A stretch of 53,864 nucleotides of DNA from a virus. Where the stretch lies: positions 1 through 53,864 of IMG/VR virus record IMGVR_UViG_3300045988_098128. The stretch is one strand, 5' to 3'. This document shows, in pieces, positions 2,031-33,425 of the stretch. A program made the translations under genes and the position numbers. Positions within the stretch are counted from its first letter, which is position 1, and each line of letters starts with the position of its first letter. The notes beneath the pieces are model-generated. The model was not told the DNA's origin, did no database searches, and saw only the letters and a program-made list of their open reading frames with translations.

Positions 2031-2371
2031 GCAAAGAAAACCGCGAAACAATCCTTAGTGAAGTAAAGAAGATAATCTGCAACGACCGTAACGAGCAGTA
2101 CGGCGAGCCGGAAGACAGCTTTGAAAAAATAGCGGATTACTGGACAACGTATCTCAAGCACAATTGCGTTGCACCCGACGCGGACTGTTGTTTATGTGCG
2201 CGAGACGTAGCTATATTGATGGTGCTGTTCAAGCTCGGTCGCATGGAGACAAGCTGTTTCCAGAGCTACGACAGCTTTATAGACGCTATAGGCTATATGA
2301 CCTGCGCAACGGATATCACCACACCTGCATTCGAGGACATAAACCCAGATTCGGAAGTCCTGCCTTTCTAA
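2027..2371 (+). CDS. DUF1599/DUF6378-like helical phage protein carrying an SSB-type C-terminal tip
   Basis: The pattern QYG...F.KIADYW..YL...DVAILMVLFKLGR...DSFIDAIGY is typical of this phage replication-module family. The last 17 aa (TTPAFEDINPDSEVLPF) are identical to the C-terminus of the SSB at 2864..3286. Confidence 0.7.
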   Translation: MSKENRETILSEVKKIICNDRNEQYGEPEDSFEKIADYWTTYLKHNCVAPDADCCLCARDVAILMVLFKLGRMETSCFQSYDSFIDAIGYMTCATDITTPAFEDINPDSEVLPF

Positions 2372-2387
2372 AGCGAGGTGCATATGA
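2317..2387 (+). repeat. 71-bp direct repeat, copy A (70/71 identical to 3232-3302)
   Basis: caccacacctgcattcgaggacataaacc[c/a]gattcggaagtcctgcctttctaaagcgaggtgcatatga. It covers the acidic tail codons, the stop, the RBS and the start of the next ORF. Confidence 0.95.
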
Positions 2388-2632
2388 TAGAGTGCATAGA
2401 AACGTGCGAGCATATGCAGAGCGTGTTCCCCGATTATCCGTGTGGAAGAGAAAACTGTCGTTTCAAAGGAGACAGCGAGAAAGCGAACGCTTGTATATGC
2501 ACCGTGCAGTGCCAGTTGTTTGACGCATGGTTTTCGGAACACTGGCACAGAATACAAAAAAACGCACAATACCTGCGCAACGGATATCGAATACCCGAAA
2601 TCGACAAACTGGGGGGAAATCAATGCAGATAA
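2384..2632 (+). CDS. hypothetical Cys-rich protein, paralog of 3299..3487
   Basis: ATG at 2384 follows GAGGTG. It shares the M..FPDYPCGR..C...F.AWF..HW pattern with the ORF at 3299. Confidence 0.55.
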   Translation: MIECIETCEHMQSVFPDYPCGRENCRFKGDSEKANACICTVQCQLFDAWFSEHWHRIQKNAQYLRNGYRIPEIDKLGGNQCR

Positions 2633-2805
2633 TTAAAATAATCGTCGCAATACTGCTGTATGGGTATGCCGTCGGTTATTTCATCGGAGCGTTTGCACTA
2701 TATGAAGCACCGAACGCAAAACCTGTTAAGCCGAAAATAAAGGCGATGATGTACGGACAAATAGCGGCAGAGGTCATAGCCGCTACACTACTGCTTAAAA
2801 ATTGA
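2623..2805 (+). CDS. small membrane protein (60 aa)
   Basis: ATG at 2623 follows GGGGGGAAA. The hydrophobic sequence IIKIIVAILLYGYAVGYFIGAFALY is followed by a second hydrophobic segment. Confidence 0.55.
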   Translation: MQIIKIIVAILLYGYAVGYFIGAFALYEAPNAKPVKPKIKAMMYGQIAAEVIAATLLLKN

Positions 2806-2863
2806 AAGGAAGTGTTGACTTATCGCAAACTTTAATTTTAACCGCGTTATCCTCGGAGGACGT

Positions 2864-3286
2864 TTGACGGCAGACCCCGAGCTGAAAACCACACCGTCCG
2901 GAATTTCCGTAACATCATTTACCGTTGCGGTCAACAGACGTTACTCCGGCAAAGACGGAGAGGAAACTAAAGCGGATTTCTTCTGCGTAAACGCATGGCG
3001 GCAGACGGCTGAATTCATCACCCGCTATTTCAGAAAAGCAAGTTCCATCTGCGTAGTCGGAACCCTTCAGACAAGAACATGGACTGACCAGCAGGGACAG
3101 AAGCGTTTTGCTACAGATATTGTCGCTGACGAAGCACATTTTGTTGATGCAAAGTCGGAAATGCCGCAACCGCAAGCCGCTCCGCAGTCAAGCTACATTC
3201 CCGACGCATACACCCAACCGAAAACAGCTGCCACCACACCTGCATTCGAGGACATAAACCCCGATTCGGAAGTCCTGCCTTTCTAA
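2864..3286 (+). CDS. ssb: single-stranded DNA-binding protein (true start probably upstream, near 2822)
   Basis: The OB-fold SSB pattern (DPELKTTPSGISVTSFTVAVNR...FF.V.AWR..AE) and the acidic ...DSEVLPF tip are present. The in-frame codons upstream of the TTG at 2864 encode ANFNFNRVILGGR, the conserved first strand of the fold. Confidence 0.85.
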   Translation: MTADPELKTTPSGISVTSFTVAVNRRYSGKDGEETKADFFCVNAWRQTAEFITRYFRKASSICVVGTLQTRTWTDQQGQKRFATDIVADEAHFVDAKSEMPQPQAAPQSSYIPDAYTQPKTAATTPAFEDINPDSEVLPF

Positions 3287-3302
3287 AGCGAGGTGCATAT
3301 GA
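3232..3302 (+). repeat. 71-bp direct repeat, copy B
   Basis: See 2317-2387. Confidence 0.95.
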
Positions 3303-3487
3303 AAGAACTGCCAACGATAGAACAGATGCAAAAACTATTCCCCGACTATCCGTGCGGACGCGGAAAATGCAAATATCAAGGCAATCAGCTTTTCAGAGCA
3401 CGTCGTTGTTCGAATGTTGATTGCCCAGAATTTAAAGCATGGTTCGTAAAACACTGGGCTAAAATTTGTGGAAGAGAAGCCGAATAA
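3299..3487 (+). CDS. hypothetical Cys-rich protein, paralog of 2384..2632
   Basis: ATG at 3299 follows GAGGTG. It is the last gene of the plus-strand early operon. Confidence 0.55.
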   Translation: MKELPTIEQMQKLFPDYPCGRGKCKYQGNQLFRARRCSNVDCPEFKAWFVKHWAKICGREAE

Positions 3488-4518: not shown

Positions 4519-5136
4519 TTAATGTTTACTAAACAGCTTTGCAAACCAATTCAACTTACGCTTGTTACCTTGTTCAACATCGGATTCGTTTGTTGTCTCA
4601 ACGTTATTCTCGTCTGCGGCAGTGCTTTTGCCAACTGTGGCGTTCTGGGAGACGTTCTGAGGTGCATTAACAAACTTGTCAGATTCACTGACCGCATGGA
4701 GCGTTTGCGCCTGCACAGCGGTTTGTAGCGCGTTGTGGGCGAGTTCGGCAAACTTGCTGGCGTAGTCTGCAATCTGCCCATCACGTTCGTCAAGCATTTC
4801 CGTCTTCTGTTTCAGCTCGTCTGCCTGTCTGTCAATTATACCTCTGAGAGCTTCTACAGTCTCCTGTAGGCTCTTTATTGCTTCTGCGTTCAAATATTCG
4901 CGTCCTTCGTTTTCTACGCTCTCACAAGCCTGTGGTGCGTCACACACGTTTTCCGCAACTGCTTCTTGTTTTTTTGAGTTGCTATATAGTTTCAATGCAT
5001 CCTCGGAGATTTTTTTTACTCCGTCCTCGCTTGTCACTATATATTCTTCAAGACCGTTCCGCTTAATTCTTTGATATACCGATTGACTTGTCACTCCGGC
5101 TCTGTCGGCGAATTCGGCTATTGTGAGGTATTTCAT
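4519..5136 (-). CDS. replication-associated HTH (MerR/excisionase-like N-terminus) coiled-coil protein
   Basis: The N-terminus is YLTIAEFADRAGVTSQSVYQRIKRNGL. ATGA overlap with the Rep gene gives the same rep-orfX arrangement as theta plasmids of Firmicutes. Confidence 0.7.
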   Translation of the reverse strand: MKYLTIAEFADRAGVTSQSVYQRIKRNGLEEYIVTSEDGVKKISEDALKLYSNSKKQEAVAENVCDAPQACESVENEGREYLNAEAIKSLQETVEALRGIIDRQADELKQKTEMLDERDGQIADYASKFAELAHNALQTAVQAQTLHAVSESDKFVNAPQNVSQNATVGKSTAADENNVETTNESDVEQGNKRKLNWFAKLFSKH

Positions 5137-5825
5137 GGATTGCTCCTTGCTTTTGTGATTGAGAATTTAATGTGAGTTATACTTCTTCCCGTCCGCGTCG
5201 GCTCATAGGCTACACGCAAATCACTAACGGCGTTAATTTCGTCAACGGCAGTGTCGATTACGCGCTTGCGAAAATCAATAAAATCCGAATAACCGCCTAT
5301 TTGCATAAGCGTTTTCAAATTTTCAACAGAAACGGTATACTCGCCTATATTGGCATAGCTTTTAAGTATCTCGTACAAACGTATAGTGTGTTTCGATTCC
5401 ATGTTTAACACGGTTTGAAGCTGATATGCCGTATACGATTCTTTGAGTTCGAGCAAATAAGGCGCTAACCGCTTGTCAAGCTGAATCCTAACCCGCGATT
5501 CATTTTCGTATATTTCCGCACCCGAAATCCATGCGCATAGCTTTCTTACATTTCCGTCCACTATCCAGAATGACTTGTCGCGTATGGATTGCAGCGTTTC
5601 ACGGAGATTCTTGTAATTCTTGCCGTTTTGAGTAATTCCAAGTGATTCACACATATCTTGCAGATTGAAATCATACTCATAAAGTTCTTTATCATCGGGT
5701 TTTACCTTGCTTATCGTATACAATATGACTTTTTGCTCCTGTGTTGTCATTCCGTATCTTGACTTTTGAATTAGTTCGTTCTTTTTGACAACCAAATTAT
5801 TAATTTTTTTATCGCTATTTTCCAT
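5133..5825 (-). CDS. Rep_3 (RepB-type) plasmid replication initiator
   Basis: The N-terminal pattern NNLVVKKNELIQKSRYGMTTQEQKVILYTISKV... is typical of the Rep_3 family. The iterons lie immediately upstream. The start was set to the ATG at 5825, which follows AAGGGAG. Confidence 0.85.
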   Translation of the reverse strand: MENSDKKINNLVVKKNELIQKSRYGMTTQEQKVILYTISKVKPDDKELYEYDFNLQDMCESLGITQNGKNYKNLRETLQSIRDKSFWIVDGNVRKLCAWISGAEIYENESRVRIQLDKRLAPYLLELKESYTAYQLQTVLNMESKHTIRLYEILKSYANIGEYTVSVENLKTLMQIGGYSDFIDFRKRVIDTAVDEINAVSDLRVAYEPTRTGRSITHIKFSITKARSNP

Positions 5826-5840
5826 GGTTACTCCCTTCAT

Positions 5841-5884
5841 GTTGAAAACTCTGTGTAAAACCTTGTTGAAAACCTTGTTGAAAA
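5841..5884. repeat. short direct repeats (gttgaaaac x3, ccttgttgaaaa x2) between the rep start and the iterons
   Basis: Read directly: gttgaaaactctgtgtaaaaccttgttgaaaaccttgttgaaaac. Confidence 0.8.
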
Positions 5885-5926
5885 CTGCAAAAGAACAATT
5901 TTCCCGTGTGTTTTCTCGGTTTTACA

Positions 5927-6038
5927 GTTACCAAATGTCCTGTTTATCGTTACCAAGTGTCCTGTTTTACAGTTACCAAATGTCCTGCTATCCGTTACCA
6001 AATGTCCTGTTTATCGTTACTAAGTGTCCTGTTTAACA
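5927..6038. repeat. five tandem 22-23 bp iterons (GTTACCAARTGTCCTGYTWWHC)
   Basis: Copies lie at 5927, 5949, 5972, 5994 and 6016, contiguous and in direct orientation, upstream of the Rep_3 gene. Confidence 0.9.
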
Positions 6039-6418: not shown

Positions 6419-6596
6419 GTTGAAGGAAACGAAATTAATGTAACTCAATCACGTTCCGCAACCAACTGTATAGAATCGCCCATTCTTTACAGTTTTTTCT
6501 TGCTATTCTTAAGTTCTATTAAAGCACCACTTATAAAGACAAGCGTGTTTATTGCTCATATCTTTAACGATTAAATCAACTTGCAGAAGATTAAAC

Positions 6597-6632
6597 AATA
6601 AAAGAGGGTAGTTTTACAACTATCCTCTTTTA
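6597..6632. terminator. bidirectional intrinsic terminator at the end of the minus-strand cargo block
   Basis: An A-run is followed by the stem agagggtag/ctatcctct, then TTTT. Confidence 0.7.
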
Positions 6633-6660: not shown

Positions 6661-7269
6661 TCAATGTTTCTCAACTATGCATTCATAGTATTTTGCGAGT
6701 TTATCTTCTCCCGCATCCTCATCGTCAAGGAAAGCGTGAGCCATTGCCGCATAGAAATCAACAGAGTTGAGATTAAACTCCTTGCCTATTTTGTAGTAAT
6801 CGGAGTACATCATGTTAATTGCAGCGTAAAATTCGGCAGGGTCGCAGTCATAGCCGTGCTGCCGTCTCACCTGCTCCGTCTGCTCAAAATTCCAGTGTCT
6901 CCCGGTCGAGCCATCGGCGTTTTTCATTTTCTCCGTCCACTCGTCCGCGTCCTCACGAGTAAGCTTGTCGTGCTTTTTCCCACGTTTGCCGTAGCTCTCA
7001 CGCTCACGCCCGTCATAATCGCGGCGGTCTCTCATGTCGTACTCACCGTAGTAGTCGCGCTTGCCGTAGCCGTCGTACTCGTCATAGTCAGGCTGACGGC
7101 GGCGGTCATAATCGGGGTATCTGTCCTCGCGTCTATCGTATCTGTCATAATCGCGCGGTCTATGGTCACGGTCATAGTCACGTTCTTGTCTGTCGTAGCC
7201 GCCGTATTCACTGCGCTTGTCCTTGCCGCTTGACATCATGAGCAGCCAGTTTGGATTCATCCTCTTCAT
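6661..7269 (-). CDS. hypothetical protein with about 100 aa of Arg/Asp/Tyr dipeptide repeats and a globular C-terminal domain
   Basis: A YDRQERDYDRDHRPRDYDRYDRREDRYPDYDRRRQPDYDEYDGYGKRDYYGEYDMRDRRDYDGRERE tract is followed by ...NMMYSDYYKIGKEF...AHAFLDDEDAGEDKLAKYY. ATGA overlap with the upstream gene. Confidence 0.7.
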   Translation of the reverse strand: MKRMNPNWLLMMSSGKDKRSEYGGYDRQERDYDRDHRPRDYDRYDRREDRYPDYDRRRQPDYDEYDGYGKRDYYGEYDMRDRRDYDGRERESYGKRGKKHDKLTREDADEWTEKMKNADGSTGRHWNFEQTEQVRRQHGYDCDPAEFYAAINMMYSDYYKIGKEFNLNSVDFYAAMAHAFLDDEDAGEDKLAKYYECIVEKH

Positions 7270-7676
7270 ACGGTTTCACCTCCCGTTGTGGTGGTGGTTG
7301 GTGCTGTGCCGTTGATTGAGCGCAGGTCGTTGTTAGGCGCACATGCCGGTCTGCCAAGCAGTCTAAAGCTGCCGCCCGTCGGTGTGGTGATTACAACCGC
7401 GCTATATCTCGTCCTCGTCCTTATCGAGCAAGCGGTCAGCTGAGCGCAACAACGGTTAGTCAGCGGGTATAGCGTAGTGCCATCTCCGATTGTGACGTAC
7501 ACGGGAGCGGTGATTGTCGTCGCCGTCGGAATTGCCTGAGCGACTACGACACAATATTTTTCCCCCGCGTTATACGCACCCGCCGGGAGATTGATTATCA
7601 GATTGCCGCCGGTAAAGGACACCGACTGAGACAGGATAAAGCGCGGGCAAAGTCTGCACACATTAGTACAAGCCAT
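7266..7676 (-). CDS. hypothetical Cys-containing beta-rich protein (136 aa)
   Basis: An N-terminal MACTNVCRLCP cluster, an internal RCCAQLTAC motif, a Thr/Val/Ile-rich body and a C-terminal TTTTTGG. The RBS GGAGGT lies 8 nt upstream. Confidence 0.7.
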   Translation of the reverse strand: MACTNVCRLCPRFILSQSVSFTGGNLIINLPAGAYNAGEKYCVVVAQAIPTATTITAPVYVTIGDGTTLYPLTNRCCAQLTACSIRTRTRYSAVVITTPTGGSFRLLGRPACAPNNDLRSINGTAPTTTTTGGETV

Positions 7677-7690
7677 TTTTTATACCTCCA

Positions 7691-7724
7691 AAAAATCAAA
7701 AGGGAAGCGGTACGCCGCTCCCCC
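7691..7724 (-). terminator. intrinsic-terminator-like hairpin between 7759..8613 and 7266..7676
   Basis: On the minus strand: ggggagcgg-cgta-ccgcttccc followed by ttttgatttttt. It ends about 5 nt before the RBS of the next gene. Confidence 0.6.
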
Positions 7725-7758
7725 GAAGTTGGTCACGGCTTAGAGCCGGAGTTGTGAA

Positions 7759-8613
7759 TCAATAGTTGCCGCAGCCGGAACAGCCGGAGTTGCAGCCGGA
7801 GTTGCAGCTGTAGTTGCCGTACTGCCAAGGTGTGGGGACGTTGAATGCGGGTACGGGAGCCTTATAGCCGAGCTGAGACACAAGGTACTGATTCTGTGCC
7901 TGCTGTGATGCTGCAAGCTCAAGTCCAAATATCTTCTGTGTCTGAGCCGCAATCTGTGCGTCCTTCGCCGCTATTTCCTGCGCCGTCAGTCTGTCGGATA
8001 TGCCGCGGAATCCGCTATTCATTGCGTCGATTATGTCGCGGGTGTTGTTAGCGGCGTTAGTGTTAATCGCGCAGGTGTCGGTTGCCATGCGGTAGCCAAC
8101 GTCGGCAAATCCGCGCTCCATCGCTCTGCCGTTTTCGCAACAGCACTGCTGGAGCTGTGTCGCAAGAGCCGCCTGTCCTCTCTCAACACCGTTAAATCCC
8201 TGCATCATAGCCACATTTGTGTCGTTAAATCCCTGCTGTGTCTGATAGCCGAGGTTGCAAATCGCGTTGCCGACGCCGTGGAAGCCGTTGAGCATTGACG
8301 AATTCATATCGTAAAATCCGTCGCAAAGTCCGTTTTGTACGCCGCGGACGGAATTCTCCAGTCCGTTGAATCCAAACTCGCTCTGTAGGTCTGCGCGGGT
8401 AAGTCCGCCCTGAGTGCCTGCCGCCATTACGTAGGGGAGTGCGCCCATGCCCGAGGAATCGCCGCCGTTTCCGCCGAAGCCGTTACGTCCCCAGCCGAAG
8501 ATGATGGCGAGAATGATTACCGCCCAAAGCCCCTCGTTTCCAAAGAATCCGCCGTCACGGTTGTTGCTGTCTCCCTGACCCGCAAGGAAACCTGTCAAAA
8601 GTTCGTTGCCCAT
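7759..8613 (-). CDS. hypothetical membrane-anchored Gly/Asn/Gln-rich protein with Cys-rich C-terminus
   Basis: One hydrophobic segment (LWAVIILAIIFGW), recurring NGF/QGF/NGL motifs, QQCCCENG, a coiled-coil-like AQ-rich stretch, and a C-terminal YSCNSGCNSGCSGCGNY. Confidence 0.7.
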   Translation of the reverse strand: MGNELLTGFLAGQGDSNNRDGGFFGNEGLWAVIILAIIFGWGRNGFGGNGGDSSGMGALPYVMAAGTQGGLTRADLQSEFGFNGLENSVRGVQNGLCDGFYDMNSSMLNGFHGVGNAICNLGYQTQQGFNDTNVAMMQGFNGVERGQAALATQLQQCCCENGRAMERGFADVGYRMATDTCAINTNAANNTRDIIDAMNSGFRGISDRLTAQEIAAKDAQIAAQTQKIFGLELAASQQAQNQYLVSQLGYKAPVPAFNVPTPWQYGNYSCNSGCNSGCSGCGNY

Positions 8614-8752
8614 GTTTTTTTCTCCTTTTCGGTTTATTTCATCCGCTTTCGCGTGATGTTCAAAAAATAATTTTTGGACAGTTTTTTAATCAGGTCGACT
8701 GCCAAACCGAAAAAGGGAAGTGTTATTTGTTGACATTTGCTTATATTTGTTG

Positions 8753-8980
8753 TTATTTGCTGATACCGAGTGAGCGCATTAAATCACCAAGGTCAATGCC
8801 GCGCTCTTTCGCCATATTTTGCGCCATGGTCTGGAGCTGGTGCGCGTCCTTGCCTTTGATAAGTTCGACGGCTTTTGCGTACTGCGCTCCTTGTCCCGCG
8901 AGATTGCCGAGGATATTATTCAGCGGCTGACCCGCGCCGAGAGCCTGCATTACGAGCATTGCGGGATTAATATTAGGCAT
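8753..8980 (-). CDS. hypothetical small protein (75 aa)
   Basis: ORF overlaps the upstream gene by 8 nt. Helical, Gln/Ala/Gly-rich. Confidence 0.55.
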   Translation of the reverse strand: MPNINPAMLVMQALGAGQPLNNILGNLAGQGAQYAKAVELIKGKDAHQLQTMAQNMAKERGIDLGDLMRSLGISK

Positions 8981-9395
8981 TTTCCGTTACCTCTTTCTTT
9001 CCCTTAGTGGGATTTTTCATCTTTTCGACCTCCGTTTGGAGAGCGGCAAAAGCTGCGCAAAGTTTGTCAAAATCCGCACGCGGTGTGTAGTCTGCCGTGT
9101 CCTTAGCCGGAGCTGTCGGAGGTGTATAAGCAAAATCCGCAAAATCCGACGCGCCGGTCTGCGAGTTGAATCTCTTGATATATACCATGCCGTGCGCCAT
9201 GTCGGGCATGATAACTCCCGCCGCCATAAAATCACAAGGTGTCGCGAGTGCTTCCTCACGGCTTGTGACGGGTCGGCAGATAAATCCGCTCTGCACCTGC
9301 GGTTGTGGTGCTGTCTGCTGAGGTTGCGCCTGCTGAATCTGCGGATTGTAACCGCTATAGTACGGATTTGTGTTATAACCAAAGTTGTACGCCAT
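8973..9395 (-). CDS. hypothetical protein with Tyr/Asn/Gln/Pro-rich N-terminus
   Basis: Track ORF trimmed to the ATG at 9395 (MAYNFGYNTNPYYSGYNPQIQQAQPQQ...), which follows GGAGGA. Confidence 0.6.
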   Translation of the reverse strand: MAYNFGYNTNPYYSGYNPQIQQAQPQQTAPQPQVQSGFICRPVTSREEALATPCDFMAAGVIMPDMAHGMVYIKRFNSQTGASDFADFAYTPPTAPAKDTADYTPRADFDKLCAAFAALQTEVEKMKNPTKGKKEVTENA

Positions 9396-9404
9396 ATATC
9401 CTCC

Positions 9405-9460
9405 ATACAAAAAATCTCTCTGTATCTGATACCATTGTACCATCGCAGAGAGATTTTTTC
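9405..9460 (-). terminator. terminator-like hairpin after the sigma-like gene
   Basis: A 9-10 bp stem (atctctctg/cagagagat) with a loop of about 23 nt, flanked by an A-run and a T-run. It ends about 10 nt before the RBS of 8973..9395. Confidence 0.55.
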
Positions 9461-9465
9461 TTTCG

Positions 9466-9735
9466 TTATTTTTGCGTATATTTTGCGTTTATTTTGCCTT
9501 GTTTTTGCAAGAGACGGACGAGCCGTATCAGTGCCGGTTTGTGCCACTTAGATACCGTCGAGTAGTCGCGCCCGACAGCATCACACACGTCCTCAAGACA
9601 CCCACGCTCCACATAGAGGATTTTCAAAAGTCGCTTGTATTCCGGTTTAAGATTGCACTTGTCGATAGCCGAGGATATCAGCTCCGTATCGTCTATCTCT
9701 TGCACTGCGTTTTTCTGCCGCACGTGCTCCGTCAA
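9466..9735 (-). CDS. small sigma-70 region-4-like / ArpU-RinA-like transcriptional regulator
   Basis: The pattern KRLLKILYVERGCLEDVCDAVGRDYSTVSKWHKPALIRL resembles the region-4 HTH. Only 89 aa. Confidence 0.55.
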   Translation of the reverse strand: MTEHVRQKNAVQEIDDTELISSAIDKCNLKPEYKRLLKILYVERGCLEDVCDAVGRDYSTVSKWHKPALIRLVRLLQKQGKINAKYTQK

Positions 9736-9738
9736 TCT

Positions 9739-10008
9739 TTACGCCTCCTTGTCCTCGCTTTCCGCTGATTCAATAATGCTTTTCACACCCTCCGCGTCAA
9801 TCCGCGCCGCGTCAACTTTGCTCTCACCGTAGATGTAGCCGATGATTGAGGATATCGCCGTAATCGCACCCGCAACCTTGCCCGCAATCTCTCCATAGTC
9901 GCTCTCACCAACGCCAAACGACATTGCAACGCCGATAATGATACCGATGATAGTCACCCACAGCTTTCTTGAGGTCAGCTTCTGTTTCCAGTTGATTTTG
10001 TTATCCAT
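9739..10008 (-). CDS. holin (two TM segments)
   Basis: Contains LWVTIIGIIIGVAMSFGV and VAGAITAISSIIGYIY with a charged C-terminus. It lies next to the endolysin. Confidence 0.7.
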   Translation of the reverse strand: MDNKINWKQKLTSRKLWVTIIGIIIGVAMSFGVGESDYGEIAGKVAGAITAISSIIGYIYGESKVDAARIDAEGVKSIIESAESEDKEA

Positions 10009-10011
10009 ACA

Positions 10012-10299
10012 CTATTCTCCTTTTTCATCCTCATAAGTAATTTCTTCCTCTCCATAATCGGAGTGATATTCCTGTTTGATTTTCTCGCGGTTTTCCATCG
10101 CCGACTTGATGAGATACGTCACCACGCCGCAACTCATGGGAGCACCGATGTAAGTCAACAGTCCGTCAAGGGAAGCCATGTCGGGAGCGATTATTAGCTG
10201 CACCACAAGGTAGCACATGCCGAATATCGCACCCGCAAACCACAGCTTCACAATTGCCGACAGCGTTCTCTTTGAGTATTCAACGTCCTTCTTTTTCAT
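10012..10299 (-). CDS. holin-like membrane protein
   Basis: Hydrophobic segments (VKLWFAGAIFGMCYLVVQLII, GAPMSCGVVTYLI) and an acidic C-terminal tail. Confidence 0.65.
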   Translation of the reverse strand: MKKKDVEYSKRTLSAIVKLWFAGAIFGMCYLVVQLIIAPDMASLDGLLTYIGAPMSCGVVTYLIKSAMENREKIKQEYHSDYGEEEITYEDEKGE

Positions 10300-10352: not shown

Positions 10353-11558
10353 TTAAAACGCAATAATGTTGTTGACCGCACGACTGCCGCCCGTTGACCG
10401 TCTCTTGATTCCCTCGACACGGATGTACGAGCCGCCGCCGTCAAGAGCGATAACGTCCTCAAAGCCTTCGCCTTGTATCTTCTTCCATACCTCGCCGGAC
10501 TTGATGTAGTTTGCCGAGGTGGTTTTGAGAGTGAGTACCCATATCTCGCCGCTTCTGATGCCGAGCATGTTTCTCGACGTGCCGTAGGTGGTGGAGCTGT
10601 CCCAGCCCTCCGCGTTAACATAGCTCATGTCGACAGGCTTTTTGCCGACCACAACAGGCACTCCGCTGACGGCGTACTTGATTCCCGACGGGATTTTGTC
10701 AACACGTTCGATTGTCGGCTTGCCCGAGTACGGCACGAGCAGTGTTGACACCTTTTTGCCCGCAAACTGCTTTGTCGCGTTGTCGGCGATACTGTACACA
10801 AGGTGGTTGCCGTAGACGTGTTCAAAAAGATTTCCCTTAGCCGCCGCCGGAATTTCCTTGATATCGCACGCGAGATTAGCGACGGGGAGCGTGTACACCT
10901 CGCCGTCCTCCGAGCGGTAATTTGCGAAGAAGCCGCCGTTGATGTATCTCTTCACTCCGCCCTTGCGCTTGTCCGCGTCATGATAGATTATCGCAAAGTT
11001 TTTAGCGCGGGTGTATGTGATGCCGTCCTTGTCGTAGCTGTCCTTGATGTTGGTATTGCCTTTTTTGCCGGACACATCGAGACTGATGTTTGTGTTCACG
11101 TTTTTTTCTCCTTTTGATGTGGATTTGATGTCGTACTGTCCCCACTCGTTAGGTATGCCGAGATATGGTGTCGGGTCTACGGATTCACCGTTTTTGCGGA
11201 CCTCAAAATGACAATGTGAGCCGAAGGAATATCCCGTGTTGCCCTCGATTCCTACTACGTCCCCCGCCTTGACCTTTTGTCCAACTTTGACTTTTCGCGC
11301 CGCCATGTGACACATGAATATCTTAAGTCCGTCCGGTGTGTCAATGCGAATGTAGTTGCCCCACTGCCATGTAAGATTAGACTTGTCCGTGATGATTGTC
11401 GACGAGCCGATAACTCCGTCACAAGGCGCAACAAGCGTTTTGTCCGTACCGCTGAGGTCTACGCCTTTGTGGTAGTCGCGCTGTCCGTTGAGCGTGCGCC
11501 AGCCAAAGTGTGATGTGAGCGTGACCTTGCCGCTCTTGTAAGGCAGATTCATTTTCAC
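10353..11558 (-). CDS. endolysin: N-terminal M23 peptidase plus C-terminal phosphodiester-glycosidase (NAGPA/DUF2233)-like domain
   Basis: M23 signature motifs HKGVDL and GNTGYSFGSHCHFEV. The C-terminal part has INGGFF... and ALDGGGS motifs. Confidence 0.75.
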   Translation of the reverse strand: MKMNLPYKSGKVTLTSHFGWRTLNGQRDYHKGVDLSGTDKTLVAPCDGVIGSSTIITDKSNLTWQWGNYIRIDTPDGLKIFMCHMAARKVKVGQKVKAGDVVGIEGNTGYSFGSHCHFEVRKNGESVDPTPYLGIPNEWGQYDIKSTSKGEKNVNTNISLDVSGKKGNTNIKDSYDKDGITYTRAKNFAIIYHDADKRKGGVKRYINGGFFANYRSEDGEVYTLPVANLACDIKEIPAAAKGNLFEHVYGNHLVYSIADNATKQFAGKKVSTLLVPYSGKPTIERVDKIPSGIKYAVSGVPVVVGKKPVDMSYVNAEGWDSSTTYGTSRNMLGIRSGEIWVLTLKTTSANYIKSGEVWKKIQGEGFEDVIALDGGGSYIRVEGIKRRSTGGSRAVNNIIAF

Positions 11559-11884
11559 TGCGCGTTACCTCCGTCGTGCGGCGGGTCTGTCGGTAAGTCC
11601 ATCACTTGATGATAGAGCTGTGTCGCAACGTCATTGCCGCCGAGGTTGTGGTAAGCCGCGTAGGCGCGTTTGAGAGCTTCCTTTGCATATATCGGGCAAT
11701 ATCCCCTGTCGAGATACTTGTCGTGATTGCGGATTATCTCTGCACGGAGAAGGCACTTTAAACCTTCCTCGAGCGCACTTTCACGCTTTTTTCGCAGCTT
11801 GATGTAAGTGACCGCCCATGTGATTATACCGCCGCACACAGCAGGGATGAGCCACTTCAAAATTATCATTATGACCTCTTTCAT
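11555..11884 (-). CDS. hypothetical membrane protein (one N-terminal TM)
   Basis: Contains IMIILKWLIPAVCGGIITWAVTYI. ATGA-type overlaps on both sides. Confidence 0.6.
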   Translation of the reverse strand: MKEVIMIILKWLIPAVCGGIITWAVTYIKLRKKRESALEEGLKCLLRAEIIRNHDKYLDRGYCPIYAKEALKRAYAAYHNLGGNDVATQLYHQVMDLPTDPPHDGGNAQ

Positions 11885-12402
11885 ATTTCCACAACCTCCA
11901 CATAGATTCCGACCAGCTCACTCAGTTTGTTATACACAGGATTGACGGTGTCTCGGTTGCAGAGGTACGTCACGTTGTCCTCGATGTAGTACTTGCCGCT
12001 CACGAGAGCCATGTTCCCCTCATACGGTATCGGGTCATACTTTGTACCGTCATGCACTTCGTCAATCCTTTCATATAGGCTTGCCGTGATGTCTGGTGTC
12101 CACGTCTCCTGCGAGGTGTGCGCCTGTATGACCTTGTAGAGCTTGCCGAGATACTGCACCTTGTAGCCGACAGTGTACGCCGTGTCTTTTGCCCACTCGG
12201 GATAAAACGCCGTCATTCGTACCGCCGTAGCGTCGTCGACTGACAAAGTGTTAATCTGCTCTTTGATGAGCATTGACATTACTTCGTTTTCGCTAATCGG
12301 ACGGTGCTTCGCTTCTGCTGCTTCTCTTGCCGCCATTTCGTTGTACTGTGCTTCTTCTTCCGCCGTCATGTCGCGGATTACTCCGTTGATACATATTTTC
12401 AT
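11881..12402 (-). CDS. tail-associated protein with CBM5/12-like carbohydrate-binding motif
   Basis: YTVGYKVQYLGKLYKVIQAHTSQETWTPDITASLYE matches the Y.VGD.V.Y.GK.Y....H.S...W.P pattern. Confidence 0.6.
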   Translation of the reverse strand: MKICINGVIRDMTAEEEAQYNEMAAREAAEAKHRPISENEVMSMLIKEQINTLSVDDATAVRMTAFYPEWAKDTAYTVGYKVQYLGKLYKVIQAHTSQETWTPDITASLYERIDEVHDGTKYDPIPYEGNMALVSGKYYIEDNVTYLCNRDTVNPVYNKLSELVGIYVEVVEI

Positions 12403-33193: not shown

Positions 33194-33217
33194 TTTCACC
33201 ACCTCCATTTTTCCCCA

Positions 33218-33247
33218 ATTTTAGCACACGCAAAACGCAAATGTCAA
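33218..33247 (-). promoter_or_regulatory. promoter of the RHH gene (TTGACA-18-TAAAAT)
   Basis: Read on the minus strand. Confidence 0.45.
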
Positions 33248-33251
33248 TATA

Positions 33252-33336
33252 CTATTTGCACAAAATAGATGCAATATATTTGTGTAATATTATTCGAAAT
33301 ATTTGCGCAAAACCTATTGACTATTTGCGCAAATAG
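33252..33336. promoter_or_regulatory. three TTTGC-GCAAA palindromic operator-like sites
   Basis: CTATTTGCGCAAATAG (33321-33336) is a perfect 16-bp palindrome lying inside the promoter spacer. atatttgcgcaaaa lies at 33298-33312 and ctatttgcacaaaatag at 33252-33268. Confidence 0.55.
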
Positions 33337-33345
33337 TGGTATAAT
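33317..33345 (+). promoter_or_regulatory. near-consensus promoter of the accessory operon (TTGACT-17-TATAAT)
   Basis: Spacing was verified. About 40 bp of it is shared with the promoter at 35146. Confidence 0.7.
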
Positions 33346-33425
33346 ATAAGTGTCAAAGGGAGAGAGCAAAAGCAACTCCCCCAAAAATAAAAAATGAAAA
33401 ATGAAAAAAATCAAGGAGAACAAAA

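Follow-up and report, generated by a model that had tools for sequence, protein, structure and literature searches.

Moron genes and lysogenic conversion are exemplified by bor and lom of phage lambda, gp15 of HK97 and the immune-evasion cluster of Staphylococcus aureus, which lies downstream of an amidase gene. Phages also encode membrane-anchored organiser or exclusion proteins, among them phi29 p16.7 and T4 Imm and Sp, and in Bacillus the C-terminal domain of BclA (Pfam PF18573) forms the C1q/TNF-like tip of the exosporium nap. The locus described here consists of five genes, P1 to P5, carried by a 53,864-nucleotide stretch of viral DNA (IMG/VR record IMGVR_UViG_3300045988_098128), the whole of which is referred to as the window. 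A first-pass annotation had tentatively interpreted these genes as lysogenic-conversion cargo by which the surface of the host cell or spore would receive material like that of the spore coat, crust, exosporium or appendages. P1-P5 are the window's copy of a conserved accessory module of five to seven genes, which is widespread in tailed phages of gut and rumen Clostridia and related Bacillota and is carried by thousands of phages. The earlier interpretation as a whole was partly supported.

Gene content and conservation of the module

An ORF check of the window recovered all five ORFs of the first-pass annotation on the minus strand, with coordinates unchanged (Table 1). In the module a sigma-70-region-4-like gene is followed by P1, P2, P3, a small beta-sandwich protein and a protein with a disordered charged tract, with a mini-protease gene as an occasional last member; the same gene order was observed in approximately 115 related loci. 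A core set of 90 loci was fetched using P3 as the search anchor, and P3 is thus present in 90/90. The P3 and P4 families comprise at least 7305 and at least 3671 related 90%-identity clusters respectively, and every one of their thousands of members is named "hypothetical". Given these large families and a gene order kept in approximately 115 loci, P1-P5 are real genes rather than chance ORFs, and the cargo is common to thousands of phages instead of idiosyncratic. Profile searches of P1-P5 against virion, lysis, defence, Ena, CotG and CotY families gave no match, in agreement with the earlier view that the block encodes neither virion nor lysis proteins.

Table 1. Features of the module and its flanks in the window, in the direction of transcription.
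Feature	Position	Strand	Description
Regulator gene	9466..9735	-	small HTH protein of 89 aa, similar to sigma-70 region 4; gene immediately precedes the module
Direct repeats	9467..9497	-	three copies of ~11 bp, CGCAAAAT-type (Tandem Repeats Finder)
Hairpin + T-run	9409..9459	-	between regulator gene and P1; -24.4 kcal/mol, z = -6.5 (RNA fold)
Extended -10 element	9434-9442		TGgTACAAT
P1 ribosome-binding site	9400-9404		GGAGG
P1	8973..9395	-	140 aa; Tyr/Asn/Gln/Pro-rich N-terminus, conserved domain, coiled-coil stretch, Lys-rich tail
P2	8753..8980	-	75 aa; small, with much Ala, Leu, Gly, Gln and Met; helical on visual inspection
Direct repeats	8724..8765	-	four copies of (A/G)CAAAT at 10-bp intervals; 139-nt spacer upstream of P3
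P3	7759..8613	-	284 aa; membrane segment, helical region, Cys/Gly tail
Terminator-like hairpin + T-run	7690..7724	-	P3/P4 gap; GGGGGAGCGG-CGTA-CCGCTTCCCT, z = -2.3
P4	7266..7676	-	136 aa; small beta-sandwich, N-terminal C-x3-C-x2-C motif, Thr/Gly-rich tail
P5	6661..7269	-	202 aa; ~90-residue mixed-charge Arg/Asp/Tyr tract, then DUF7841 domain
Intrinsic-terminator-like hairpin + U-run	6593..6632	-	after P5, ending the module; -21.1 kcal/mol, z = -5.6 (RNA fold)

The regulator gave sub-threshold matches to HTH_23 (0.0012), DUF1492 (0.013), TIGR02937 (0.0026) and phrog_36 (8e-8), and its positional homologue in locus L001 passed the Pfam Sigma70_r4 threshold. With a profile built in this analysis, the family was found to precede P1 in 30 of the 90 loci; Sigma70_r4 was the commonest Pfam family among genes upstream of the module, and faint GerE-type matches were seen in relatives. 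With respect to P1, the longest ORF reaches 9443, but the start at 9395 is preferred because GGAGG lies 5 nt upstream and public gene callers give the same 140-aa product. The N-terminal composition previously described for P1 was confirmed, and a small conserved domain was recognized (FICRPVTSREEA...YIKRFN). P1 matched phrog_21718 at 2.5e-6, had no Pfam or PDB relative, and its family was found in 77 of 90 loci. The P1 stop and P2 start overlap by 8 nt. The P2 homologue of Butyrivibrio virus Ceridwen matched phrog_22984 at 2.8e-18, and the slot between P1 and P3 is occupied in nearly all loci.

P3 (phrog_16490, 6e-39) begins with a short acidic N-terminus, a hydrophobic membrane segment (residues ~28-42) and a Gly-rich linker; after a long helical region and a PVPAF-type motif it ends in a Cys/Gly tail, the C-terminus being CNSGCNSGCSGCGNY. 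It is rich in Gly (16%), Asn (10%) and Gln (8%), with GF/GY motifs at residues 99, 110, 122, 128 and 139 and conserved Cys at 97, 119, 157-159 (CCC) and 181; the single hydrophobic segment, the composition, the motifs and the CCC all agree with the first description. The Cys/Gly tail is near-universal, with on average ~4 Cys in the last 30 residues (85 loci). An AF2 model was helical but of low confidence (pLDDT 50). Only P3 has a strongly hydrophobic 19-residue window (Kyte-Doolittle 1.70). The soluble members showed no obvious N-terminal hydrophobic signal-like segment, as judged by hydropathy scan and inspection rather than by a signal-peptide predictor. Spore-coat proteins likewise have no N-terminal signal-like segment. 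We infer that P3 is a single-pass membrane protein whose Cys-bearing helical part and Cys/Gly tail would face the cytoplasm, an orientation suggested by the few charges beside the segment and by partners that carry no obvious signal-like segment; the opposite topology is possible.

P4 carries MACTNVCRLCP, RCCAQLTAC and a Thr run, as first reported, and has 8 Cys in total, of which C3, C7 and C10 were invariant in 40 aligned sequences. Identity was 66-97% across the best 120 clusters, and nearly all of 362 representatives at 50% identity are stand-alone proteins. The AF2 model of P4, with 8-9 strands and medium confidence (pLDDT 64), had no match in the PDB by Foldseek (best of any kind E = 0.06), and neither Ena nor BclA structures were among the PDB results. 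In BFVD it resembled the C-terminal tip domains of phage tail-fibre, hyaluronidase-fibre and collagen-like proteins, at E 1e-4 to 1e-2 and a TM-score normalised to query of 0.40-0.51. A 294-aa DUF7841 protein in BFVD also aligned structurally with the P4 model and would fit a fusion of P4 and DUF7841. In approximately half of the relatives the P4 slot is occupied instead by a ~140-aa protein that matches Pfam BclA_C below threshold (best match 4.4e-7, 30 bits against a threshold of 38). Of this BclA_C-like family 6/29 members matched BclA_C at E<0.01, and the protein of one near-twin phage did so at 5.9e-5. Position 4 is occupied by P4 in 41 loci and by the BclA_C-like protein in 42, never by both, and no homology between the two families was detectable. 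The suggested analogy with BclA gained weak support from this stand-in; the window's own proteins gave no BclA_C match at E<=1.

The P5 tract (residues 17-105), which precedes the C-terminal domain as originally noted, contains 20 Asp, 21 Arg and 15 Tyr, with a charged-residue fraction of 0.61 and a net charge of 0; YD, DR, RD and DY are its commonest dipeptides. The C-terminus matched Pfam DUF7841 at 3.8e-27, and DUF7841 accompanies P4 in 25 of 27 loci. In other phages the P5 slot is filled by unrelated proteins with similar linkers and short motifs such as RDSxGRY and DGRFAP. The P4 and P5 frames also overlap, the P5 start overlapping the P4 stop (ATGA), which suggests coupled translation.

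The block had been described as visibly GC-richer than the neighbouring tail and lysis genes. Total GC of the five genes (0.51-0.56) did exceed the window mean of 0.47. However, GC3 (0.54-0.65) equalled that of the holins, endolysin and distal tail genes (0.58-0.66), so that, compared with the lysis genes, the block does not form a GC island. What P3 and P4 have in additional GC was at codon position 2 and reflects their Gly/Ala/Thr/Pro content.

Transcription signals and genomic setting

The hairpins divide the module into two parts, P1-P2-P3 up to the second and P4-P5 up to the third. A terminator-like hairpin before the first module gene was found in 37 of 68 loci, versus 8/90 and 5/54 in controls (9%), and 43 of 89 loci have, after the stop codon of P3, a hairpin and T-run comparable to that in the P3/P4 gap. 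The extended -10 element sits in the loop of the pre-P1 hairpin, at a non-canonical distance from any -35-like hexamer. The stem differs between the window and loci L011 and L012 at paired positions (TCTCTCTG/CAGAGAGA versus TCCCTTG/CAAGGGA), while TGGTA(C/T)AAT is invariant in the window and its closest relatives. The ~11-bp repeats lie just upstream of this promoter element and are a possible regulator binding site; other loci carry different threefold repeats at the same place. In a scan of the window the (A/G)CAAAT repeats were the only cluster with four copies at exact 10-bp spacing, and L009 has extra copies.

Upstream of the module, genes for Amidase_2, M23, GH25, CHAP and holins were found across loci, and the module is usually downstream of an endolysin gene. 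The window itself holds two holin-like genes and one endolysin. The same cassette was present in 18 of the 21 close relatives with contigs extending past the regulator gene. At the same spot near-identical phages bear an alternative cassette without P1-P4, which follows the same plan and encodes a protein with a hydrophobic N-terminus, coiled coil and Cys/Gly tail, then a BclA_C-like protein and a DUF7841 protein. A moron is an insert in a phage operon that is transcribed independently. The variation at this spot, the terminators on either side and the conserved -10 element support the moron architecture that had been proposed from the position after the lysis genes. Homing-endonuclease-like genes were also found inserted within the cassette.

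With respect to distribution, the module is intact in Ceridwen, a plaque-forming phage for which only lytic growth has been seen and whose hosts belong to a genus of non-spore-formers. Further copies were found on a contig of at least 148 kb, which codes for a DNA polymerase III alpha subunit and a ribonucleotide reductase of its own, and in MAGs labelled Bacilli, Mollicutes and Selenomonadaceae. These occurrences make a spore-specific role unlikely as the general function. In L006 the cassette is at a prophage end and adjoins host spoVAC, spoIVB and spo0A; in L038 it is likewise at a prophage end, adjoining a gene read by eye as ruvC. In Dulem virus 35 it lies between head genes and is accompanied by membrane and coiled-coil proteins.

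Possible roles of the module

Our preferred reading, to which we give a probability of about 0.35, is that the module is transcribed separately and that its products assemble into a complex on the inside of the host cell membrane. This assembly model draws on composition, gene order and overlapping reading frames. The one hydrophobic segment near the N-terminus of P3 would hold this protein in the cytoplasmic membrane, P4 would form a small beta-sandwich oligomer with the shape of a fibre tip, its slot taken elsewhere by the BclA_C-like protein, and P5 would supply the disordered Arg/Asp/Tyr tract and the DUF7841 domain. Together with the P1-P2 pair these could form a multivalent, possibly metal- or disulfide-bridged assembly at the inner membrane face. 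Such a process would have a mechanical parallel in spore-coat and exosporium assembly, where proteins without export signals are laid on the membrane from the cytoplasmic side; the module is neither homologous to coat proteins nor tied to spores. We lean towards a function in phage fitness during both infection and carriage, for example keeping other phages out at the membrane or organising the envelope of the infected cell. The upstream regulator could place the module in a very late lytic class, which would fit a role in cell lysis or the virion, and the conserved Cys could instead mean metal cofactors for an enzymatic or sensing role.

Among the alternatives, the one that ranks highest, though unlikely, is a superinfection exclusion or abortive infection system at the usual prophage cargo site; P3 would be its effector in the membrane, and the tip-shaped protein would serve as a sensor or decoy. 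The moron-type architecture at prophage ends by host DNA (L038, L006), the conserved host-type -10 element, the membrane protein and the alternative cassettes of near-identical phages would suit such a system, and the homing-endonuclease-like insertions hint at phage-phage competition. However, PADLOC defence models gave no match except one marginal hit (0.0046) to a candidate family, the module lacks nuclease, NTPase and other typical effector domains, its conservation is far wider than that of usual defence cargo, and known exclusion systems have one or two genes. We regard as less likely again a lysis or release accessory, whose very late expression would depend on the sigma-like protein encoded where the lysis operon ends, and which would act at the membrane with the holins on lysis timing or escape through the envelope. 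The module adjoins holin and endolysin genes in most loci, its GC3 matches that of the lysis genes, P3 is of the single-pass membrane type, membrane and coiled-coil proteins are its companions in Dulem virus 35, and putative regulator-binding repeats precede P1 and P3. Yet holin, spanin, endolysin and XhlA profiles matched no module member, the window is already equipped for lysis, near-identical phages cope with a cassette lacking P1-P4, and a lysis system of five to seven genes whose products include disordered and Cys-rich proteins has no known precedent.

The fibre-tip resemblance of the P4 model, the exchange between P4 and the BclA_C-like protein at a single position, as is usual for receptor-binding proteins, the location between head genes in Dulem virus 35 and the retention in a phage known only from the lytic cycle point towards virion accessories, in which the exchangeable protein would be a receptor-binding or decoration tip, P3 a fibre-like stalk and the others assembly factors. 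We consider this improbable. Terminators set the module apart from the structural and lysis operon, mostly downstream of the endolysin; P3 has a membrane-type hydrophobic segment; P4 is conserved, unlike receptor-binding proteins, and nearly all its relatives stand alone instead of ending long fibres. Among near-twins the cassette type did not track with the distal tail gene variant, and the module proteins matched no virion PHROG or Pfam family. Least probable, and quite doubtful, is the original proposal of spore or surface cargo. The weak BclA_C match of the P4 replacement in half of the loci, soluble members without an obvious signal-like segment (hydropathy scan, inspection), module proteins that are rich in Cys, Tyr and Gly like coat proteins, a small HTH regulator with faint GerE-type matches in relatives, the moron-type architecture, and hosts some of which sporulate, with host sporulation genes beside the L006 cassette, can be cited for it. 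Against this, P1-P5 matched no DUF3992, CotY/CotZ, BclA_C or other coat profile at E<=1, the P4 model found no Ena or BclA structure in the PDB, and P4 is not detectably homologous to its BclA_C-like counterpart. The comparison of P5 with CotG also failed, Tandem Repeats Finder showing no CotG-like tandem repeat in its tract. Carriage by a phage of non-spore-forming Butyrivibrio, by a large contig with its own replication genes and in the MAGs listed above argues in the same direction.

Comparison with known systems

The module shares with BclA_C and the exosporium a small beta-sandwich, in the form of the sub-threshold match in the P4 slot of half of the relatives, soluble members without obvious export signal and Cys-rich partners. 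It differs in that P4 itself matches neither BclA_C nor the BclA_C-like family, no collagen-like stalk or ExsY/CotY-type partner match is present, and hosts include non-spore-formers. P4 resembles Ena subunits (DUF3992) in being small (~120-140 aa) and beta-rich with an N-terminal Cys cluster, but an Ena relationship was supported neither by profile (E<=1) nor by PDB structure. The likeness of P4 to tail-fibre tip domains and small siphophage receptor-binding proteins is at fold level (E 1e-4 to 1e-2); in contrast to these, P4 stands alone, is conserved rather than hypervariable and has a Cys cluster, and its gene lies beyond a terminator and outside the tail genes. With phi29 p16.7 and T4 Imm/Sp there is a functional analogy only, namely a P3-type single-pass coiled-coil membrane protein, a host-type promoter and the inner membrane face. 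These systems have no sequence relation to the module and consist of one or two proteins each, with no partners of a Cys-rich, tip-shaped or disordered kind. As in morons, the module lies at the end of the late region by the prophage boundary, with terminators on both sides and its own promoter element, and close relatives have different content at the site. Unlike them, it comprises five to seven genes in a fixed internal order, is conserved across thousands of otherwise unrelated phages, and is kept in a phage known only from the lytic cycle.

The five genes and their surroundings in the window

Five minus-strand open reading frames running in the same direction, here P1 to P5, were present in the ORF listing exactly where a first-pass annotation, made by a model from the sequence only, had proposed a spore-coat-like or surface-like cargo. 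The proposed start of P1 at 9395 is better than that of the longest ORF, at 9443, since it has GGAGG 5 nt upstream, and the resulting 140-aa product is the one in public gene calls, where it occurs on 140 contigs. The reading frames of P1 and P2 overlap, as do those of P4 and P5. Protein features that had been picked out by eye were recovered as well. P3 (Gly 16%, Asn 10%, Gln 8%) has a single hydrophobic segment, the strongest of the entire block, GF/GY motifs about 11 residues apart, a CCC motif and, as its tail, CNSGCNSGCSGCGNY; P4 has eight Cys, three of them in a C-x3-C-x2-C motif at residues 3-10; and residues 17-105 of P5 include 20 Asp, 21 Arg and 15 Tyr and carry no net charge. Residues 92-196 of P5 are a DUF7841 domain (PF25223; 95.2 bits against a gathering score of 25.2, E = 3.8e-27). 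Judged from sequence alone, the Cys/Gly tail of P3 was set aside as a RiPP/TOMM core peptide, modifying enzymes being absent nearby, and the P4 Cys motif as a radical-SAM site, P4 being too small and a beta-sandwich.

With respect to base composition, the block had been described as more GC-rich than the neighbouring tail and lysis genes, which holds for the head and tail core genes (GC3 0.42-0.52) and fails for the holin, endolysin and distal tail genes, whose GC3 of 0.58-0.66 is close to the 0.54-0.65 of the five genes. The GC excess of P3 and P4 sits at codon position 2. Since GC3 equals that of the lysis genes, the idea of a foreign GC island was dropped.

The window, which is a complete contig of 53,864 bp, also encodes a terminase small subunit (GP3_package), a recombination nuclease-like protein and a DnaC-like loader. 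Directly upstream of the Rep3-type initiator gene lie five 22-bp iterons (GTTACCAAATGTCCTGTTTATC) and a 12-bp repeat array, a predicted plasmid-type origin, and none of the 20 window ORFs scanned is an integrase, so that the assumption of a phage-plasmid fits. A divergent control region near 33.3 kb, probably the operator region of a repressor, contains a pair of perfect palindromes (ATTTGCGCAAAT) and additional half-sites; its near-consensus promoter (TTGACA, 17 nt, TAAAAT) reads into the minus-strand packaging/structural operon.

Coordinates of features in the window and in related loci (L-numbers)
Feature	Record	Position (nt)	Strand	Remark
P1	window	8973-9395	minus	
P2	window	8753-8980	minus	
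P3	window	7759-8613	minus	
P4	window	7266-7676	minus	
P5	window	6661-7269	minus	
Small sigma-70-region-4-like gene	window	9466-9735	minus	
Lysis-type gene	window	9739-10008		
Lysis-type gene	window	10012-10299		
Endolysin	window	10353-11558		401 aa; lysis-type match; Peptidase_M23-like by eye; close homologues match M23 and NAGPA
Distal tail protein	window	11881-12402		CBM_5_12 carbohydrate-binding module
Rep3-type initiator gene	window	5133-5840		
Iterons and repeat array	window	5840-6035		
Divergent control region	window	33209-33425		
Direct repeats upstream of P3	window	8724-8765		10-11 bp phase
Direct repeats upstream of P1	window	9467-9497		10-11 bp phase
HNH/homing-endonuclease-like ORF	L089 (Butyrivibrio virus Ceridwen)	7912-8775		by eye; between intact module genes
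HNH/homing-endonuclease-like ORF	L047	2333-3376		by eye; between intact module genes
HNH/homing-endonuclease-like ORF	L049	11026-11865		by eye; between intact module genes
HNH/homing-endonuclease-like ORF	L037	6762-7217		by eye; between intact module genes
Reverse transcriptase gene (RVT_1)	L003	~2155-3312		few kb upstream of module; possibly from a diversity-generating retroelement
Alternative cassette	L096	10169-12069		

Conservation, gene order and transcription signals of the module

Gene sets of the P1-P5 type recur widely. P3 has at least 7305 related clusters at 90% identity and P4 at least 3671; they are free of Pfam domains, and the handful of source names listed read "hypothetical protein". 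A full profile search gave 362 P4 representatives at 50% identity, nearly all of them stand-alone proteins of 120-180 aa. When P3 was used in tblastn, 21 phage records were found, and two annotated ones keep the gene order of the module, which comes after holin and endolysin in bajarodcaudo virus 5 and is flanked by head genes in Dulem virus 35. A scan of one genome per species produced 246 relatives, from which 80 loci were kept; profiles built from these were applied across 90 loci to obtain the counts tabulated below. The two protein types at position 4 are mutually exclusive, with zero co-occurrence in the 90 loci. Counts at position 5 overlap, as some proteins match the profiles of families A and B alike; the position-5 families are mutually unrelated, yet all have Arg/Asp/Tyr/Gly-rich linkers in which the short motifs RDSxGRY, DGRFAP[KR] and HYVRGHYSRD recur. 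The genes immediately upstream of the module are chiefly lysis enzymes, holins and Sigma70_r4 proteins.

Occupancy of module positions across 90 loci
Position	Protein	Loci
In front	sigma-region-4-like gene	30/90
1	P1	77/90
2	P2, plus unlabelled ~70-aa ORFs	50/90
3	P3	90/90
4	P4	41/90
4	weakly BclA_C-like protein, ~140 aa	42/90
5	DUF7841 protein	27/90
5	helical-linker-helical family A	34/90
5	helical-linker-helical family B	32/90
Extra	HExxH protein, ~104 aa, marginal Peptidase_M78 match	18/90
Extra	Cys..His protein, ~120 aa (phrog_3754)	34/90
Extra	helical protein, ~105 aa	16/90

Before P1 there is a hairpin with a T-run (-24.4 kcal/mol, z = -6.5), the loop of which contains the extended -10 element TGGTACAAT. 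In two related loci (L011 and L012) the stem is changed at paired positions while TGGTA(C/T)AAT is kept, and this element is invariant in the four loci aligned. A GC-rich hairpin with a T-run follows P3, and a third hairpin with a U-run (z = -5.6) follows P5. Using a rule that called a terminator-like site wherever a hairpin of -14 kcal/mol or stronger ended at a T-run, such sites were found upstream of the first module gene in 37 of 68 loci and just after P3 in 43 of 89; the controls, inside P3 and 1.24-1.5 kb upstream, gave 8/90 and 5/54. Upstream terminators are thus enriched, at 54% versus 9% in controls. Together, the hairpins and the overlapping frames suggest that the module is divided into two insulated units, P1-P2-P3 being the conserved one and position 4, position 5 and the extras the variable one.

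Upstream of P3 and of P1 there are direct repeats of two types, (A/G)CAAAT and CGCAAAAT, and in that place related loci have other threefold repeats (ATGATAAAA in L010, TGACGTAAAA in L076). These may be binding sites of the small sigma-like regulator, and it is suggestive only that GCAAAT-type repeats would be a regulator motif common to the module and the late promoter region at ~33.3 kb. The regulator protein of the window itself has sub-threshold matches only (HTH_23, 0.0012; TIGR02937, 0.0026). Its positional homologue in the related locus L001 passes Sigma70_r4 with 26.7 bits against a gathering score of 24.1, and seven upstream proteins in relatives match the same family, the best at 2.4e-8.

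Near-twin phages, defined by an endolysin 88-99% identical to that of the window and a contig reaching far enough, numbered 21. Sixteen have the cassette of the window and two more a truncated or slightly broken copy, and in five loci (L090, L096, L104, L105 and L109), with endolysins 90-99% identical, a shorter, different cassette occupies the same site. This cassette lacks P1-P4 and begins with a 183-aa protein having a Gly-rich hydrophobic N-terminus, a coiled coil and the Cys/Gly tail CNTGCGTCNGNM. After it come a BclA_C-like protein, a protein of 112 aa and a DUF7841 protein devoid of the Arg/Asp/Tyr tract, so that the cassette keeps the same logic as the module of the window. By inspection, cassette type showed no correlation with the distal tail gene variant. 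The block had been placed at a classical moron position, which agrees with the predicted terminators on both sides and a predicted promoter element of its own, and with the variation of the module at a single site among close relatives (5/21 with a different cassette).

Nearly all relatives of the module come from Clostridia (Oscillospiraceae, Acutalibacteraceae, Ruminococcus, Lachnospiraceae, Christensenellales), with Anaerotruncus colihominis DSM 17241, whose prophage lies at 1.668-1.689 Mb of the chromosome, and Muriventricola aceti among the isolates carrying it; some module-bearing MAGs are labelled Bacilli, Mollicutes, Erysipelotrichaceae or Selenomonadaceae. Integrated prophages have the module as the final block before host DNA, the classic cargo site, adjoining spoVAC, spoIVB and spo0A in locus L006 and a gene read by eye as ruvC in L038. 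This location beside host genes, sporulation genes included (L006), indicates that some hosts sporulate. An intact variant is also present in the cultured Butyrivibrio virus Ceridwen, in the order endolysin, small membrane protein, sigma-like gene, annotated terminator, Cys..His protein, P1, P2, P3, BclA_C-like protein, inserted HNH-like gene, position-5 protein and helical protein. The Ceridwen proteins have the accessions QHJ73765-QHJ73772. Only lytic growth of Ceridwen has been seen, and its authors think it probably virulent despite an antirepressor gene (PMC7372960). A further variant lies in a contig of at least 148 kb (L003) encoding DNA polymerase III alpha and an anaerobic ribonucleotide reductase (NrdD).

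Comparison with known families and folds

Searches of P1-P5 and the regulator against Pfam, NCBIfam, PHROGs and PADLOC returned only DUF7841 and PHROG families of unknown function, P3 matching phrog_16490 (6e-39) and P1 phrog_21718. The likenesses to spore proteins suggested by composition were not borne out at the level of families. For the Ena fibre subunits, P1-P5 had no Pfam DUF3992 match (hmmscan, E<=1) and no Ena entry appeared among the PDB Foldseek matches of the P4 model; for CotY/CotZ/ExsY, no coat profile in Pfam or NCBIfam was matched at E<=1. The P5 tract, compared by description with the CotG-type tandem repeats, whose short units are rich in Lys, Ser, Arg and Tyr, differs in being of Asp/Arg/Tyr and mixed charge without a repeat unit, and Tandem Repeats Finder reported one weak array only in the gene, of 2.5 copies of a 12-bp unit. 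P4 had no match to BclA_C (PF18573), the C1q/TNF-like tip domain of the exosporium, nor did PDB Foldseek of its model give any BclA. The proteins that replace P4 resemble BclA_C consistently and below threshold (at most 30.3 bits versus a gathering score of 38; 6/29 at E<0.01), and a search of the PDB with their family profile (E<=1) gave no chain of BclA. Whereas BclA has a collagen-like (GXX)n stalk before its tip, P4 and its replacements stand alone at 120-180 aa, and none of the module's proteins shows a visible GXX repeat. P4 as a divergent BclA_C-like protein was also rejected, hhalign finding no relation between the two.

The AF2 model of P4 is an 8-9-strand beta-sandwich of medium confidence (pLDDT 64, pTM 0.58). 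Nothing significant was found for it in the PDB by Foldseek, the best match being a phage baseplate chain at E = 0.06. Within BFVD its own family ranked first, and next came C-terminal tips from three sorts of phage protein (tail-fibre, hyaluronidase-fibre and collagen-like; E 1e-4 to 1e-2). A 294-aa DUF7841 protein was another match, for which a P4-P5 fusion would fit. P4 as the tip of long fibres was rejected, the rare long matches being assembly chimeras or a low-complexity artefact. One protein from the representative search, P0380 (1611 aa), has about 20 copies of an 80-residue Cys/His/Ser/Leu-rich unit, and its match to the middle of the P4 profile (1.9e-17) looks like such an artefact. 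P3 was modelled as all-helical at low confidence (pLDDT 50), too poor for a fold search. The Cys/Gly tail at its C-terminus is found almost throughout, averages about four Cys over the last 30 residues, and is the same whichever protein type holds position 4, so that co-variation of the two was rejected. Family profiles of P4, P3, P1 and the BclA_C-like proteins had no meaningful match among PDB sequences, and 47 homologues of P1 gave only chance coiled-coil matches in Pfam.

Possible roles of the module

The module is a widespread, conserved and modular gene set with separate transcription signals. It includes one membrane-type protein, whose partners have no comparable hydrophobic segment, and a predicted fibre-tip-like beta-sandwich, while positions 4 and 5 are filled by interchangeable analogues. 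Our main reading, to which we give a probability of roughly 0.35, is an assembly of these proteins on the cytoplasmic side of the membrane, where P3 would act as anchor, the position-4 protein as an oligomeric hub and the position-5 proteins as multivalent linkers, with the Cys clusters possibly forming metal or disulfide bridges. Coat and exosporium layers are built in such a manner, and the spore-coat analogy of the first-pass annotation therefore describes a plausible mode of assembly.

As an explanation of purpose the analogy fares worse. Remodelling of the spore surface would be in keeping with sporulation in some hosts and with the classic cargo site; however, the tests for coat-family membership failed, and a spore-specific purpose is argued against by the distribution, which takes in the contig of at least 148 kb and Ceridwen, whose host genus, Butyrivibrio, forms no spores according to its description (PMC6249431). 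In its specific form, the spore hypothesis from which study of the module started is weak, and we regard it as the least probable of the roles named here. Exclusion or defence heads these other roles while still being unlikely: in PADLOC-DB 2.0 (E<=0.1) nothing matched the six proteins of the window or three of the four from Ceridwen, and the sole match, to candidate family PDC-M36B, was marginal (0.0046). An accessory role in lysis is also improbable and comes next; in Pfam and PHROGs, lysis-type matches belong to the neighbouring genes and to none of P1-P5. An accessory of the virion would be rather less probable again, and the remaining probability goes to possibilities outside those listed.

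Assembly at the inner face of the membrane can be drawn more specifically, in a form that we put forward as speculation and think unlikely to hold as a whole: gut-Clostridia phages would encode a kit for a proteinaceous matrix or condensate tethered there. It would comprise the P3 anchor with its Cys/Gly tail, a fibre-tip-shaped oligomeric hub (P4 or BclA_C-like), multivalent disordered proteins with short Arg/Tyr motifs (P5 and analogues), the P1-P2 pair, one of which has a prion-like low-complexity N-terminus, and sometimes a small remodelling protease. If true, tailed phages of ordinary size would be making an intracellular structure of a new kind, built in the fashion of a spore coat and serving infection; it might keep out competitors, organise replication or assembly, or control the envelope.

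Among multi-gene blocks of gut and rumen Clostridia phages, a dominant and little-studied portion of the mammalian virome, this module ranks as one of the more widespread. Solving its function would bring annotation to tens of thousands of "hypothetical" genes and could show a new phage action on Gram-positive hosts, and it is testable in two cultured systems, one being B. fibrisolvens DSM 3071 infected with Ceridwen and the other Anaerotruncus colihominis DSM 17241 with its prophage. Its families are known in databases solely as entries of unknown function (phrog_21718, 22984, 16490, 20016, 3754, 1233 and DUF7841). The literature searched gave no description of the module, including that on phage-encoded exosporium or coat genes and on sporulation genes in gut phages, and did not mention DUF7841, a family without known function. 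No known system has the same parts: a putative membrane anchor and Cys clusters are here combined with a beta-sandwich protein shaped like a tip, with disordered proteins of mixed charge, in some loci with mini-proteases, and with transcription signals of the module's own.
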